From a virus (Duplodnaviria > Heunggongvirae > Uroviricota > Caudoviricetes): a DNA stretch of 10,930 bases. The position numbers were made by a program, and so were the translations under genes. Below are positions 1,005 through 6,914 of this stretch, piece after piece; positions within the stretch are counted from its first letter, which is position 1; every line of letters begins with the position of its first letter. A model generated the notes under the pieces. It saw only the letters and a list, made by a program, of their open reading frames with translations. It searched no databases and was not told where the DNA came from. The stretch lies in IMG/VR virus record IMGVR_UViG_2684622580_000009. One strand, written 5' to 3'.

Positions 1005-1580
1005 CTACGGCAGTGCTGGCCATTCAATATCCTGTGCAGTTGACGTATCAACACGGTTCAGCAACACCCGATACTTTTTCCAGGCTTCCAGCAATGAGGT
1101 TTCTTCCTCCGTTGCGATTTCCAGATCTACAGCATCCTGAAGTGGCGCAATATGCTCACTGGCTACCTGCATCAGGCTGTTTTTTGTTTCTTCCGCCTCT
1201 CGGATCCGGAACAGTTTTTCTGCTTCTGCATCTTTCACCCAGGCTGTGCCGTTCCACTTCTGAAACTCCCCTTCCGGCGATAACCAGGTAACATTTTCCG
1301 GTAACGGACCGAGTTCAGAAATAAATAACGCGTCCCCTGACGCTACGTCATAAACCGTTTTACCCCGATGGTCTTCAACGAGATGCCACGATGCCTTATC
1401 ACTGTTGAAAACAGCCACAAAGCCAGCAGGAATATCTGGTGGTGCAATATCGGTACTGTTTGCTGGCAGACCTGTATGAGGCGGAATATATGCGTCACCT
1501 TCACCAATAAATTCATTAGTTCCGGCCAGCAGATTATAAATTTTTATGGTCCGTGGTTGTTCACTCATTCTGAATGCCAT
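1005..1580 (-). CDS. tfa: Tail fibre assembly protein (lambda Tfa-like), 191 aa
   Basis: Near-identical over its length to recalled lambda Tfa ([54 protein letters not shown]...); sits immediately downstream of the stf-derived ORF with a start/stop overlap at 1580. Confidence 0.9.
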
Positions 1581-2626
1581 TATGCAAGCCTCACAATATA
1601 GTTAAATGCGATGTTTTTGACGGTGTTTTCCGCGTTACCAGCAGCGTTAACGGTGATGGTGTGTCCATGTGAACCAATCGCAACGGAGTGCGTGTGTGCA
1701 CCAATACCGACAGTATGTGCGTGTGCACCTGCAGATGCTGCTGTGCCGGACAGTGAGTGGCTATGGTTACCATCTGTACTGGTATTAGCTAACGCCCCCG
1801 TAGACATACCTACTGAGCCTTGTACACCCCAGGTATTTTGACCTGAGCTTGTATAACCATATTGATAAGTATCTTTAAAAACACTGGGGTTAAATCGACG
1901 GCCATCTCTATGGCTGTGATTACCAGCTGCATTCGTGCTGCCACTTAAACTATGGGTATGCGCACCAGTGTTATTCGTGGATTTAGTGCCGTAATCAAAC
2001 GACGATGTGGTTTTCGTCCCCAAATCCGTACTGGATGCGCTGGCGCTGTGGGTATGCGATTTAATGCCGTCCTGTTCCTGAGACAATACGGCCCGACCAC
2101 TGGCAGGTTTGCCCTTAATCGTCCAGCCACGCATATCAGGGATCACGCCTGACGGATAAGCGGCTGCAAGTTTCGGGTATGCAGATTTGTCAAAAGTCTG
2201 CCCCTGCATCAGGGCATAGCCAGACGGAACGGTATCTGATGGCCACGGGATTGGTGCGCCAGGCGGATAAAACTGCTCTGATGGCGTATAGAGTGAATAA
2301 ACTGTACCGTCCGTTAACCCTTCCGGCTTATTAGCAGAATATGCTGGTGACGTATGAATCGTCACGTTGGCATTACTGGTATAACCGACACGGGCAGACT
2401 TCACCACATTCACCTCGCGGATGTAGTCGCTGCCCATCGCATTCATGATGGCCCGCTGAAAGGGCAGTGTTTCCCAGCGCCCTTCCTGGTATGCGGATTC
2501 TTTCGGGAGATAGTAATTAGCATCCGCCCATTCAACGGCGGTCTGTGGCTCCGGCCTGAACAGTGAGCGAAGCCCGGCGCGGACAAAATGCCGTAGCCTG
2601 TTAACCTGACTGTTCGATATATTCAC
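1580..2626 (-). CDS. Chimeric ORF: terminase large subunit A N-terminus (about 83 codons) fused in frame to the C-terminal region of side tail fibre Stf (about 265 codons)
   Basis: Residues 1-83 ([83 protein letters not shown]) match lambda gpA N-terminus; the remainder ([11 protein letters not shown]...GAHTHS...[29 protein letters not shown]) matches the lambda Stf C-terminus with its His-rich GxHxH repeats. Start overlaps the Nu1 3' end as in lambda. Junction near 2376-2379. Confidence 0.85.
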
Positions 2627-3146
2627 TCAGCAACCCCGGTATCAGTTCATCCAGCGCGGCTGCTTTGTTCATGGCTTTGATGATATCCCGTTTCAGGAAA
2701 TCAACATGTCGGTTTTCCAGTTCCGGAAAACGCCGCTGCACCGACAGGGGGATCCCGTCGAGAATACTGGCAATTTCACCTGCGATCCGCGACAGCACGA
2801 AAGTACAGAATGCGGTTTCCACCACTTCAGCGGAGTCTCTGGCATTTTTCAGCTCCTGTGCGTCGGCCTGCGCACGCGTAAGTCGATGGCGTTCGTACTC
2901 AATAGTCCCTGGCTGGAGATCTGTCTCGCTGGCCTGCCGCAGTTCTTCAACTTCCCGGCGCAGCTTTTCGTTCTCAATTTCAGCATCCCTTTCGGCATAC
3001 CATTTTATGACGGCGGCAGAATCATAAAGCACCTCATTACCCTTGCCACCGCCTCGCAGAACGGGCATTCCCTGCTCCTGCCAGTTCTGAATGGTACGGA
3101 TACTCGCACCGAAAATATCAGCCAGCTGCTTTTTGTTGACTTCCAT
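2601..3146 (-). CDS. nu1: Terminase small subunit Nu1 (lambda Nu1-like, NohD/NohQ-type), 181 aa
   Basis: Essentially identical to recalled lambda Nu1 ([71 protein letters not shown]...EYIEQSG); N-terminal winged HTH; correct spacing (about 190 bp) from cosN. Confidence 0.92.
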
Positions 3147-3480
3147 TGTTCATTCCACGGACAAAAACAGAGAAAGGAAACGACAGAGGCCAAAAAGCTC
3201 GCTTTCAGCACCTGTCGTTTCCTTTCTTTTCAGAGGGTATTTTAAATAAAAACATTAAGTTATGACGAAGAAGAACGGAAACGCCTTAAACCGGAAAATT
3301 TTCATAAATAGCGAAAACCCGCGAGGTCGCCGCCCCGTAACCTGTCGGATCGCCGGAAAGGACCCGCAAAATGATAATAATTATCATCTACATGTCACAA
3401 CGTGCATCTACGCCATCAAACCACGTCAAATAATCAATTATGACGCAGGTATCGTATTAATTGATCTGCATCAACTTAAC
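3147..3480. other. cos: Lambda-type cos site: cosB (3147-3323), cosN 12-nt cohesive-end sequence (3324-3335), cosQ side (3336 to about 3480)
   Basis: 3324-3335 AGGTCGCCGCCC is the reverse complement of the lambda left cohesive end GGGCGGCGACCT. Flanking DNA matches recalled lambda left-end sequence (to 3147) and lambda right-end sequence (CGTAACCTGTCGGATC...ATTATGACGCAGGTATCGTATTAATTGATCTGC, 3336 to about 3470) with a few substitutions. Confidence 0.85.
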
Positions 3481-3534
3481 GTAAAAAAAACTTCAGACAA
3501 TACAAATCAGCGACACTGAATACGGGGCAACCTC

Positions 3535-3729
3535 ATGTCAACGAAGAACAGAACCCGCAGAACAACAACCCGCAACATCCGCTTTCCTAACCAAATGATT
3601 GAACAAATTAACATCGCTCTTGAGCAAAAAGGGTCCGGGAATTTCTCAGCCTGGGTCATTGAAGCCTGCCGCCGGAGACTAACGTCAGAAAAGAGAGCAT
3701 ATACATCAATCCAAAGTGATGATGAATAA
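3535..3729 (+). CDS. ylcI: Small hypothetical protein, 64 aa, ribbon-helix-helix-like; tentatively YlcI/DUF3950-like
   Basis: Basic Arg/Thr-rich N-terminus followed by RNIRFPNQMIEQINIALEQKGSGNFSAWVIEACRRRL, which resembles an RHH (Arc/MetJ/CopG-type) fold. Length and position next to cos/Nu1 match what I recall for ylcI of DLP12. The symbol is tentative. Confidence 0.5.
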   Translation: MSTKNRTRRTTTRNIRFPNQMIEQINIALEQKGSGNFSAWVIEACRRRLTSEKRAYTSIQSDDE

Positions 3730-4088
3730 ACATCCCGGTTTCTTCCACCATCGCACCGGAAAAGCGACTATGAGGGTAACCCTGCGTCTGTCAGCACAGT
3801 AAAACCCGGTGTGCATCGTTTTTGATTATTCCCGCACACTCACGCAGAAGGAATTCCCCGTCGGGCTACGGTCATGGTTAATGCGGGAATACGGCGACGA
3901 TACAGCGCAGCTAAAAGGGTAATGGACAGAAAGAGCGGTTTATTTCATTCCACAGGATTCTGAGTGCCCCCCTCCTCCAATAGGCTGAGCATCCACCTAT
4001 ATAGTTTTAATTTTCATCAATCCATTTAACTATCGTTTAATTGTTGTCACATAGGATTCTGCCGTTTTTAACAATGCAGGATAATAAG

Positions 4089-4382
4089 ATGAAAAAAATG
4101 TTGTTTTCTGCCGCTCTGGCAATGCTTATTACAGGATGTGCTCAACAGACGTTTACTGTTGGAAACAAACCGACAGCAGTAACACCAAAGGAAACCATCA
4201 CCCATCACTTCTTCGTTTCGGGAATTGGACAGGAGAAAACTGTTGATGCAGCCAAAATTTGTGGCGGCGCAGAAAATGTTGTTAAAACAGAAACCCAGCA
4301 AACATTCGTAAATGGATTGCTCGGTTTTATTACTTTAGGCATTTATACTCCGCTGGAAGCGCGTGTGTATTGCTCACAATAA
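4089..4382 (+). CDS. bor: Bor lipoprotein (serum-resistance, lysogenic-conversion cargo), 97 aa
   Basis: MKKMLFSAALAMLITGCAQQ signal peptide with lipobox LITGC; matches recalled lambda Bor. RBS AGGATAA upstream of the ATG at 4089. The ORF-track start at 4041 is probably an upstream in-frame extension. Confidence 0.9.
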   Translation: MKKMLFSAALAMLITGCAQQTFTVGNKPTAVTPKETITHHFFVSGIGQEKTVDAAKICGGAENVVKTETQQTFVNGLLGFITLGIYTPLEARVYCSQ

Positions 4383-4413: not shown

Positions 4414-4944
4414 CTATCTGCACTGCTCATTAATATACTTCTGGGTTCCTTCCAGTTGTTTTTGCATAGTGATCAGCCTCTCTCTGAGGGTGAAATAATC
4501 CCGTTCAGCGGTGTCTGCCAGTCGGGGGGAGGCTGCATTATCCACGCCGGAGGCGGTGGTGGCTTCACGCACTGACTGACAGACTGCTTTGATGTGCAAC
4601 CGACGACGACCAGCGGCAACATCATCACGCAGAGCATCATTTTCAGCTTTCGCATCAGCTAACTCCTTCGTGTATTTTGCATCGAGCGCAGCAACATCAC
4701 GCTGACGCATCTGCATGTCAGTAATTGCCGCGTTCGCCAGCTTCAGTTCTCTGGCATTTTTGTCGCGCTGGGCTTTGTAGGTAATGGCGTTATCACGGTA
4801 ATGATTAACAGCCCATGACAGGCCGACGATGATGCAGATAACCAGAGCGGAGATAATCGCGGTTATGCCCGTGACATACAGTCCATACACCAACAATATC
4901 TTTATATGGTATGTAGCTGACACCTTCCAGACCATCGTCACCAC
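4414..4944 (-). CDS. Rz: Rz-like i-spanin, 5' end replaced: lambda Rz homology runs from 4414 to about 4866; the ATG at 4944 is non-native
   Basis: From [14 protein letters not shown]... to ...KYINEQCR the product is near-identical to recalled lambda Rz from codon 5 onward. The first roughly 26 codons of this ORF are instead out-of-frame endolysin DNA. Native Rz start and RBS are absent. Confidence 0.8.
4473..4655 (-). CDS. Rz1: Rz1 o-spanin lipoprotein, 60 aa, embedded in the +1 frame of Rz
   Basis: [60 protein letters not shown]: lipobox VVGC and proline-rich segment, near-identical to recalled lambda Rz1. Confidence 0.85.
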
Positions 4945-5029
4945 TCGGACCAGTGATGAGCACAGACGCTATGGCAACAGCCCCACCACCAATAGCAGCT
5001 GCTACAGCCTTGCGTAATGATGGCGACAT
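4805..5029 (-). pseudogene. rrrD: Truncated SAR-endolysin (phage 21 R / RrrD-type lysozyme): only the first 55 codons are retained, followed by 19 out-of-frame codons
   Basis: [55 protein letters not shown] matches the SAR signal-anchor and start of the catalytic region of P21-type endolysins. The frame then runs into Rz DNA and stops at 74 aa, where a complete enzyme is about 165 aa. Start overlaps the holin stop (TAATG). Confidence 0.8.
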
Positions 5030-5389: not shown

Positions 5390-5816
5390 AAGCTGTGTGA
5401 CGAAGTAACCACTCTTAACAGCATAACCAATTTTTTACGTACGTAAACCACTAAATGATATTTGCGAGAATGCTACCGAGTATTGAAAACACCACTACAA
5501 ATACATAAGCAAATCTCAACAAATAACCAACAAATTATTTCCAGTGTTATTTTTAGCTTATTTAAATTGAACCTTCAAATTATAGAGCGCTTATAAATAA
5601 CAGCCGTTAATATAAATTGGCTAATAGATTTATTTTTATTCAGCAAAGAGCTATGAATAGGATTCGATAGAAAAAAGTTCAGATAAAAATAGAGATCTAC
5701 TTCACAAATCAAACGAGAAACCAAAACTTACATCTTGAAATAATCACATTGATTAGATGAATATTTATCGCGCAGTGACATCATTTTTTAATAATAGTTC
5801 AAAAAAAGGGCTCACG

Positions 5817-6914
5817 ATGAAAAAATTAACAGTGGCAATTTCTGCTGTAGCTGCATCAGTACTGATGGCGATGTCTGCTCAGGCAGCTGAAATTTATAAT
5901 AAAGACAGTAACAAGCTGGATCTGTACGGGAAAGTTAATGCTAAGCACTACTTCTCCTCTAATGATGCAGATGATGGTGATACTACTTATGCCCGTCTTG
6001 GCTTCAAAGGTGAAACCCAAATCAACGATCAACTGACTGGTTTCGGTCAGTGGGAATATGAATTCAAAGGCAACCGCGCTGAATCTCAAGGTTCCTCCAA
6101 AGACAAAACCCGTCTTGCATTTGCAGGCCTGAAATTCGGTGACTACGGCTCAATCGATTACGGCCGTAACTACGGTGTAGCATACGACATCGGTGCGTGG
6201 ACTGACGTTCTGCCAGAATTCGGTGGCGATACCTGGACCCAAACAGATGTGTTCATGACTGGTCGCACCACTGGTGTTGCAACCTATCGTAACAACGACT
6301 TCTTTGGTCTGGTTGATGGTCTGAACTTTGCTGCTCAGTACCAAGGCAAAAACGATCGTAGCGATTTCGATAACTACACTGAAGGTAACGGTGATGGCTT
6401 CGGTTTCTCTGCTACCTATGAATACGAAGGATTCGGTATCGGTGCAACTTATGCGAAATCTGATCGTACCGACACTCAAGTTAATGCAGGGAAAGTTCTT
6501 CCTGAAGTATTTGCTTCCGGTAAAAATGCAGAAGTTTGGGCCGCAGGTCTGAAATATGACGCTAACAACATTTACCTGGCCACTACCTATTCTGAAACCC
6601 AGAATATGACTGTATTTGCTGATCACTTCGTTGCTAATAAAGCCCAAAACTTCGAAGCTGTTGCACAATATCAGTTCGATTTCGGTCTGCGTCCGTCCGT
6701 TGCTTACCTGCAATCTAAAGGTAAGGATCTTGGAGTATGGGGCGATCAGGACTTAGTCAAATATGTTGATGTAGGTGCAACCTATTACTTCAACAAAAAT
6801 ATGTCTACTTTCGTTGATTACAAAATCAACCTGCTTGACAAAAATGACTTCACTAAAGCACTCGGTGTAAGCACTGATGACATCGTTGCTGTAGGTCTGG
6901 TTTACCAGTTCTAA
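5817..6914 (+). CDS. nmpC: Outer-membrane general porin, NmpC/OmpD/Lc-type, intact, 365 aa precursor
   Basis: Signal peptide [23 protein letters not shown] then [17 protein letters not shown]..., C-terminal VGLVYQF beta-barrel terminal motif with terminal Phe; matches recalled NmpC. The ATG at 5817 is preferred to the upstream ATG at 5757 because it starts the signal peptide and has a purine-rich stretch upstream. It sits opposite to the late genes between Q and S, as in DLP12/PA-2. Confidence 0.9.

Follow-up and report, generated by a model that had tools for sequence, protein, structure and literature searches.

Identity and Family of the ORF

A 64-aa open reading frame (ORF) beside the cos site of a lambdoid prophage, on the strand opposite to a Nu1-type terminase gene, raises the question of whether it is a real gene, what kind of protein it encodes and on what that protein might act. 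The window, i.e., the whole stretch of 10,930 nucleotides that was analyzed, contains 80 ORFs of at least 40 aa, and the size of the ORF alone is thus no evidence for a gene. The ORF at 3535..3729 (plus strand) starts with ATG and is translated into MSTKNRTRRTTTRNIRFPNQMIEQINIALEQKGSGNFSAWVIEACRRRLTSEKRAYTSIQSDDE. It is the RefSeq gene ylcI, an already annotated prophage gene, the label at this position being "ylcI: YlcI/YnfO family protein" (WP_001415975.1). The initial annotation had quoted the sequence correctly, and its interpretation was supported in part; the gene belongs to a named family, DUF3950.

Family membership was supported by profile scores, conserved core and lambdoid-prophage slot alike. 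YlcI scored 72.8 bits with the Pfam DUF3950 profile (PF13132; cut-off 25, E 2e-20) and 37.6 bits with the NCBIfam profile NF041551 (YlcI/YnfO; cut-off 30), and matched PHROG 949 (phrog_949, function unknown) with E ~1e-35 (1.2e-35). The protein fits the family core K-x-IRFP...I...NFSAWV-x-[ED]AC, and across 21 diverged DUF3950 members (alignment A1) residues I15, R16, F37 and V41 are invariant, while F17, I25, S38, W40, A44 and C45 are conserved at 90% or more. E. coli K-12 carries two members of the same family, YlcI (DLP12) and YnfO (Qin), in the same slot and on the opposite strand, between the lysis/bor genes and nohD/nohA as in the window. The window protein is nearly identical to both over residues 1 to 52-55; the two types, ylcI (64 aa) and ynfO (77 aa), differ in the C-terminal tail only.

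Comparison of ylcI with the BP-4795-type copies and with the copy in the prophage at locus L084 returned dN/dS values of 0.04-0.14, with dN of 0.07-0.10 and dS of 0.7-1.7, i.e., with synonymous sites near saturation. Between lineages with unrelated upstream DNA the homology starts exactly at the ATG, thus fixing the start codon. On account of the DUF3950 and phrog_949 E-values, the low dN/dS and the homology starting at the ATG, ylcI is far beyond chance, and it is a genuine, conserved accessory gene of lambdoid phages. Our literature search returned no published functional study of DUF3950, ylcI or ynfO; resequencing papers name ylcI in incidental SNP calls only, and ynfO is counted among the uncharacterised y-genes (PMC11551758).

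Position of ylcI in the Prophage

The window was 100% identical over the 851 bp tested to many E. coli chromosomes, e.g., KSC9, and is a decayed DLP12/Qin-like lambdoid prophage. The RefSeq gene order runs from a recombinase (Pin) through tail-fibre assembly, a tail-protein gene, nohD, ylcI, iss (bor-like), rzpD, a lysozyme pseudogene, essD, a porin, quuD and DUF968/DUF2303 fragments to yfdR, and the far end of the window is occupied by an IntD-like integrase ORF. The features surrounding ylcI are the following:

2601..3146, minus strand: nohD, Nu1-type small terminase subunit, ATG at 3146
3324-3335, minus strand: cosN, 12-nt cohesive end, GGGCGGCGACCT on the minus strand
3359-3365, minus strand: cosQ, GGGTCCT on the minus strand (AGGACCC on the plus strand), annotated at the homologous site in phage 434
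3535..3729, plus strand: ylcI coding sequence, 64 aa, YlcI/YnfO, DUF3950
3730..3910, no strand assigned: conserved unannotated segment downstream of ylcI, equivalent to the lambda bor-upstream region
4089..4382, plus strand: iss/bor lipoprotein gene, co-oriented with ylcI

The location beside cos and opposite to Nu1 was confirmed. On the plus strand cosN reads AGGTCGCCGCCC, which is the lambda cohesive end in reverse complement, and window position 3336 is homologous to the terminal base of the lambda and 434 records. The nohD and ylcI genes diverge across cos, with 388 bp between their coding sequences, and ylcI starts 200 bp from the cosN nick. It runs antisense to the late operon, and from nohD to essD no annotated gene other than ylcI and iss/bor does so. 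Synteny was counted in 80 close viral contigs carrying near-identical ylcI copies: cosN was found in all of them (80/80), Nu1 lay upstream on the opposite strand in 76 (modal measured spacing 389 bp), and bor was located downstream on the same strand in 53.

Further observations concern the state of the prophage. A 348-aa ORF at 1580-2626 (minus strand), labelled only "phage tail protein" in RefSeq, begins with the N-terminus of A, the large terminase subunit of lambda, and passes into the C-terminal region of a tail fibre (A'::stf fusion). This fusion looks like a deletion of all head and tail genes, and a prophage so deleted therefore cannot package. The Rfam element IS009 (RF02111) was matched at 1039-1237 (minus strand, 226.7 bits), inside the tail-fibre assembly gene region. 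In the lysozyme region (4805-5029 and 4414-4944, both on the minus strand) a truncated lysozyme gene abuts rzpD, and RefSeq marks the lysozyme as a pseudogene missing its C-terminus. The porin gene (5757-6914) is intact.

Predicted Fold of YlcI

The YlcI protein was divided into the following parts:

Residues 1-12: basic Arg/Thr arm
Residues 13-18 (RNIRFP): predicted beta-strand
Residues 19-32: helix A
Residues 37 to about 52 (to 60 in the AlphaFold2 model): helix B
Residues 53-64: tail, varying by lineage

The very basic, Arg/Thr-rich N-terminal tail recorded in the initial annotation is present, as the first 14 residues (MSTKNRTRRTTTRN) include 5 basic residues and 5 threonines. An AlphaFold2 (AF2) monomer was built from the 21-sequence alignment and showed a mean pLDDT of 70.9 (70-82 in the core). 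In this model residues 13-18 are extended and are followed by helices 19-32 and 37-60, i.e., a strand-helix-helix topology in about 45 residues, and the two-helix part recurs in the AF2 model of a fusion relative described below. The top Foldseek matches of the YlcI model in the PDB were ribbon-helix-helix (RHH) proteins (probability 0.77-0.84, E ~1), namely StnY/CopG, NikR, Arc, ParD, CopA_SO, HicB and the MatP C-terminus.

The likeness to RHH repressors claimed at the outset thus held for the modelled topology and the fold matches, whereas the sequence-profile links stayed below significance: E 0.21 and 0.02 with the Arc-like and HicB-like phrog families, E 0.61 with CopG 9kkd, and an RHH_6 match of E 0.09 in one of the 21 DUF3950 members. 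The hhalign comparison with Arc gave a probability of 2.7% and placed YlcI N14-I-R16-F-P over Arc N11-L-R13-W-P. These Arc residues form the DNA-contacting strand. A search of the PDB with the single YlcI sequence was discarded as it returned chance ribosomal L16 matches only, and PDB sequence searches revealed no similarity of YlcI to Rpp or to any solved packaging factor. YlcI probably folds as a ribbon-helix-helix protein, an assignment that is likely rather than proven.

YlcI resembles Arc and Mnt of phage P22 (RHH, immI) as a small phage protein with an N-x-R-aromatic-P strand and two helices, and Arc appears among its Foldseek matches, but no significant sequence relationship links them. 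Arc acts as a dimer on short palindromic operators, and by analogy the same may hold for YlcI. Unlike in the P22 immI module, no antirepressor (ant) gene adjoins ylcI in the window; in satellite elements AntA is sometimes found near the DUF3950 gene but on the opposite strand, and this arrangement is therefore not an arc-ant-type operon. A P22 immI-type Arc/Mnt-antirepressor module was thus found neither in the window nor at the satellite loci.

Regulatory Sequences around ylcI

The DNA between nohD and ylcI contains the following elements:

3371..3398, minus strand: sigma-70-like GTGACA-16-TATCAT directed towards cos and nohD, a consensus match only
3372..3386, no strand assigned: Fur box TGATAATAATTATCA, a perfect 7-1-7 match between the divergent genes nohD and ylcI
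3433..3465, no strand assigned: imperfect 13-nt inverted repeat ATCAATTATGACG / CGTATTAATTGAT, candidate operator
3461-3474, no strand assigned: 5+4+5 palindrome TTGATCTGCATCAA overlapping the previous repeat, candidate operator
3524..3527, plus strand: weak Shine-Dalgarno GGGG, 7 nt before the ylcI ATG

The GGGG position is annotated in phage 434 as the RBS of CPT_434_77, and no sigma-70 consensus match was found on the plus strand upstream of ylcI. The gene is transcribed, as overlapping ybcW-ylcI transcripts occur in K-12 RNA-seq data.

Inverted repeats, which the initial annotation had proposed to look for on both sides of the ORF, were detected as the two upstream candidates listed above and, within the downstream segment 3730-3910, as a 10-nt perfect inverted repeat (3827-3836 / 3882-3891). 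The imperfect repeat at 3433-3465 sits 70-100 bp 5' of the ylcI ATG and is kept in the lambda, Qin and E. albertii copies, which are too similar to be informative; it differs from the GTGT..ACAC and GGTA..TACC types of the satellites. An operator shared by the lambda-type and BP-4795-type genes was also considered and rejected, the upstream DNA being unrelated with no common motif; none can be traced because the BP-4795-type upstream DNA is HNH coding sequence.

The Fur box was found once against 0.01 matches expected by chance. It is located 233 bp from the nohD ATG, about 150 bp upstream of ylcI and 7 bp from cosQ, and overlaps the promoter-like match on the minus strand (3398..3371). It corresponds exactly to the published "nohA -233" / "nohB" Fur site: "nohA -233" is a predicted strong Fur cluster confirmed by Fur gel shift, and the matching "nohB" cluster was listed in the same study and not gel-shifted (Chen et al. 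2007, PMC2189734).

Distribution of the Family

DNA of ylcI was detected in 3785 of 5426 complete E. coli genomes, in up to 12 copies each, annotated as ylcI or ynfO, and tblastn detected the gene in 153 phage records. Conservation among related prophages, on which the initial annotation had made its proposal depend, is thus extensive. In all of the lambdoid records listed (39/39) the gene lies on the minus strand, antisense to the conventional late-gene orientation. Intact copies occur in functional phages, namely lambda, 434, HK630 and BP-4795. The lambda copy (complement 48109..48303; 2210-2404 in our extract L003) is identical to YlcI at 62 of 64 positions, and NC_001416 bears no feature there; phage 434, where the homologue is annotated as the DUF3950 hypothetical protein CPT_434_77, and some RefSeq lambdoid records do annotate it.

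BP-4795-type phages, with HK97-like packaging, show the order S-R-ant-Rz (minus), DUF3950 (plus), HNH-TerS-TerL (minus), the start codons of DUF3950 and HNH lying only 41 bp apart. In two packaging modules that are unrelated to each other, the gene is therefore transcribed divergently from the first packaging gene. Prophages of the 933W type carry bor and the bor-upstream segment and lack ylcI, which is accordingly accessory and dispensable for packaging. In this respect ylcI resembles the lambda morons bor and lom, small accessory genes antisense to or independent of the late operon, likewise dispensable and variably present among lambdoid phages; both are expressed from the prophage according to a statement cited in PMC7067206. 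The bor and lom products are outer-membrane proteins, whereas YlcI is predicted to have a cytoplasmic DNA-binding-type fold.

An exhaustive HMMER search over 1.84 billion representatives returned 143 DUF3950 clusters only. All genuine members belong to the Enterobacterales, with the addition of one "Bisgaard Taxon 46" isolate, and throughout the Enterobacterales the motif persists at identities as low as 33%. The clade that is 33-57% identical to YlcI occurs mostly in PICI-like satellites, where AlpA, integrase, AntA/Rha, DUF4222 and D5/DUF927-Toprim primases are recurrent neighbours. All of them lie on the opposite strand, and the DUF3950 gene is therefore antisense to and divergent from the primase operon. 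Upstream of the gene, at -125..-15, 24 of 38 satellite-clade loci contained perfect palindromes (arms of at least 6 nt) against 17% of control windows, an enrichment whose p-value is inflated because the 38 loci are related. Palindromes and divergence together are the layout of a divergently transcribed repressor.

Some records call for separate comment. The many apparent homologues in unrelated taxa such as Algoriphagus, Streptomyces, Cohnella, Staphylococcus aureus and a "Campylobacter phage" (L088-L117, L123, L124, L127, L133; proteins P0001-P0030) are lambda DNA, which points to contamination of public assemblies; the contigs of about 3.5 kb resemble the nanopore lambda control amplicon. 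The DUF3950 protein-cluster counts are inflated by noisy reads. A 58-aa DUF3950 homologue was found in Salmonella enterica subsp. diarizonae and arizonae (L130 and L132, 4995-5171) among genes matching IpgD, Chaperone_III (type III chaperone) and Peptidase_C69, a locus that looks like the SPI-5 sopB-pipC-pipD neighbourhood, in which case one ORF of that island is a DUF3950 member. Pasteurella phage Pmp7 (L168, 4853-5011), a 10.7-kb satellite-like record, contains a DUF3950-like frame of 43% identity that runs antisense within a CDS labelled "transcriptional repressor", reflecting either a wrong-strand annotation or a fortuitous match.

Proposed Function and Alternative Explanations

Taken as a whole, the data are best explained by YlcI being an RHH protein made in the lysogen that represses itself and/or the cos-proximal divergent region, a model in which we place slightly better than even confidence. 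Its domain of about 50 residues would most likely be an RHH, in which the RNIRFP strands of two subunits would join as a beta-ribbon reading the DNA major groove. R16 is invariant, and N14 and R16 align with Arc N11 and R13. Further DNA contacts would come from the basic N-terminal arm; the last 10-25 residues vary by lineage. Since ylcI runs against the late operon, it can be made while the late genes are silent, in the lysogen, like bor, and its transcription would start from a weak promoter of its own. YlcI would most likely be a sequence-specific repressor acting on its own gene and/or on the divergent promoter region close to cos, which would read into the packaging genes, i.e., nohD here and HNH-TerS in BP-4795-type phages. 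We infer that YlcI dimerizes, binds DNA and is expressed in the lysogen, most likely acting as a dimeric repressor on the cos-proximal divergent region, a target assigned purely from gene position. Several observations speak against this repressor model: the profile links to RHH families are below significance, no consensus promoter match precedes ylcI on the plus strand, the upstream repeat in the window is imperfect and unlike those of the satellites, no operator common to the BP-4795-type copies can be traced, and 933W-type phages do without the gene. The enriched palindromes, seen at related loci, might be due to a different regulator.

YlcI might instead modulate packaging, by binding cos-adjacent DNA or, via its tail, TerS, and so tune or block terminase; the prophage cos could, for example, be shielded from stray cleavage, and fusions with TerS in satellites could be decoys against helper packaging. 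This explanation is unlikely in our view and draws its strength from the position beside the packaging genes, which holds across two unrelated terminase types, and from the fusions themselves. In eight clusters (P0193, P0251, P0260-P0265; 120-142 aa) DUF3950 or another RHH is joined to the N-terminal Terminase_2 HTH of about 50 residues, after which the protein ends. The AF2 model of such a fusion shows the HTH at pLDDT 93-95, with a disordered linker separating it from the two-helix part. In P0265 (142 aa, alignment A8) a different, canonical-looking RHH N-terminus, ALRVEPPLEQGIKIALEQD...SVSAWIKRIIRKEL, replaces DUF3950 and is followed by the same linker and TerS HTH as in the other fusions, a natural domain swap that supports DUF3950 as an RHH equivalent.

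One fusion, P0251, is encoded in a satellite and adjoins int-alpA. At this locus (L084 5590-6363, E. coli CP027459) one PICI-like satellite contains a DUF3950 gene of 60 aa together with a DUF3950-TerS(HTH) fusion gene of 120 aa; two TGGTACGTACCA palindromes, flanking a TTTATAAT box, precede the former and four GTT(T/A)AACAC-like repeats lie 5' of the latter. The fusion HTH shares 64% identity with a TerS fragment of the resident prophage alongside and 53% with the satellite's own TerS. This prophage is lambdoid, its terS fragment comprises 61 aa, and the satellite lies beside that fragment, which looks like the result of an insertion within or adjacent to the terS of the helper. The fusions suggest, for the distant relatives only, a functional tie between the RHH and packaging-site recognition. 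The Rpp protein of Gram-negative PICIs reportedly redirects the helper TerS, and both Rpp and the fusions are small satellite-encoded proteins linked to the terminase small subunit, an analogy that would apply to the distant DUF3950 relatives in PICI-like elements and not to the window gene. A role in packaging is at odds with the 933W-type phages, which do without ylcI, with the HNH gene lying between the DUF3950 gene and cos in BP-4795-type phages, with the position of most satellite copies near int-alpA and far from TerS, and with the lack of similarity to Rpp or solved packaging factors noted above.

A broader proposal, that DUF3950 proteins are dedicated packaging-site guardians in lambda-type lysogens with the satellite TerS fusions as decoys, appears distinctly doubtful. 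Here the RHH protein of the lysogen could bind the cos-proximal region and keep the terminase genes silent or cos uncut, possibly integrating a Fur/iron signal from the adjacent Fur box, and the satellite RHH fused to a helper-like TerS DNA-binding domain could be a decoy blocking helper packaging.

A moron-type transcription factor, controlling bor/iss as the next co-oriented gene or host genes, is improbable. The two genes are the only annotated antisense genes from nohD to essD, bor follows ylcI on the same strand in 53 of the 80 close contigs, the conserved bor-upstream segment lies directly 3' of ylcI and a Fur box is located in the shared upstream region. This segment of about 180 bp (3730-3910) was found in 3669 of the 5426 E. 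coli genomes, 80-100% conserved and in up to seven copies each; 933W-type prophages have it in the absence of ylcI, and BP-4795 has it in the absence of bor. It is the bor-upstream region and not a partner gene of ylcI. However, BP-4795-type phages and satellites carry ylcI relatives without bor, and prophages of the 933W type possess bor with the segment preceding it but no ylcI. As each occurs without the other, ylcI and bor are inherited independently. A missed RNA element at 3726-3925 was also considered and dismissed, the folding z-scores of -0.29 and -0.11 giving no structure signal, and Rfam searches downstream of ylcI (gathering threshold and E<=5) returned nothing relevant, with AgvB and AsxR (both Rfam) absent.

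YlcI could also be an orphan antitoxin whose toxin was lost or lies elsewhere, or an anti-defence protein neutralising a host defence protein through its tail, but both are very improbable. No toxin candidate is present downstream of ylcI, the ORF listing of 3700-4090 showing only frames of up to 37 aa in 3730-4040. Two neighbours per side were scanned with Pfam at 39 diverged DUF3950 loci from species-representative genomes, and no toxin family recurred among the 155 neighbours, SymE and HicB occurring once each; clustering of the neighbours revealed no toxin partner either, and the co-oriented small ORFs downstream of these loci are unrelated to each other. YlcI is therefore not the antitoxin of a toxin-antitoxin pair, and the type II antitoxin hypothesis was discarded, since no toxin gene adjoins it here or at the 39 diverged loci. 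The initial annotation had likewise seen no partner toxin downstream and had favoured a stand-alone regulator or a DNA-binding factor acting near cos. Compared with RHH antitoxins and CopG-type regulators (TacA, ParD, VapB12, CopA_SO, StnY, the NikR N-domain and the PutA RHH domain), YlcI lacks a cognate toxin gene and a ligand- or toxin-binding domain, its tail here comprising only about 12 residues. The PADLOC defence models gave no match for YlcI or two diverged members and one weak, partial HamA match for the fusion protein.

Finally, a chance ORF or a decaying relic without function, as the heavily decayed prophage (lysozyme pseudogene, A'::stf fusion, DUF968/DUF2303 fragments), the weak RBS and the lack of a consensus promoter might suggest, has a negligible probability and is refuted by the selection and conservation data, i.e., dN/dS of 0.04-0.14, intact copies in lambda, 434, HK630 and BP-4795 and a motif conserved to 33% identity across the Enterobacterales.

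Significance

As a finding, ylcI is ordinary: a member of a named family of unknown function, occurring in most E. coli genomes, whose gene and family were already annotated and to which the present analysis makes the modest additions of the RHH assignment and the context observations. Its residual value lies in a gene under purifying selection located 200 bp from cos in phage lambda and absent from the lambda reference annotation. Concrete and cheaply testable hypotheses follow from the predicted fold, from the divergent position antisense to the late operon, from the experimentally verified Fur site nearby and from the satellite fusions of an RHH with a TerS HTH. If DUF3950 proteins did guard the packaging site, phage lambda would possess, 200 bp from cos, a regulatory gene that had so far escaped study. 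If the proposed regulation by YlcI is true, it would add a small regulator to the biology of lambda and possibly a new mechanism of satellite interference.
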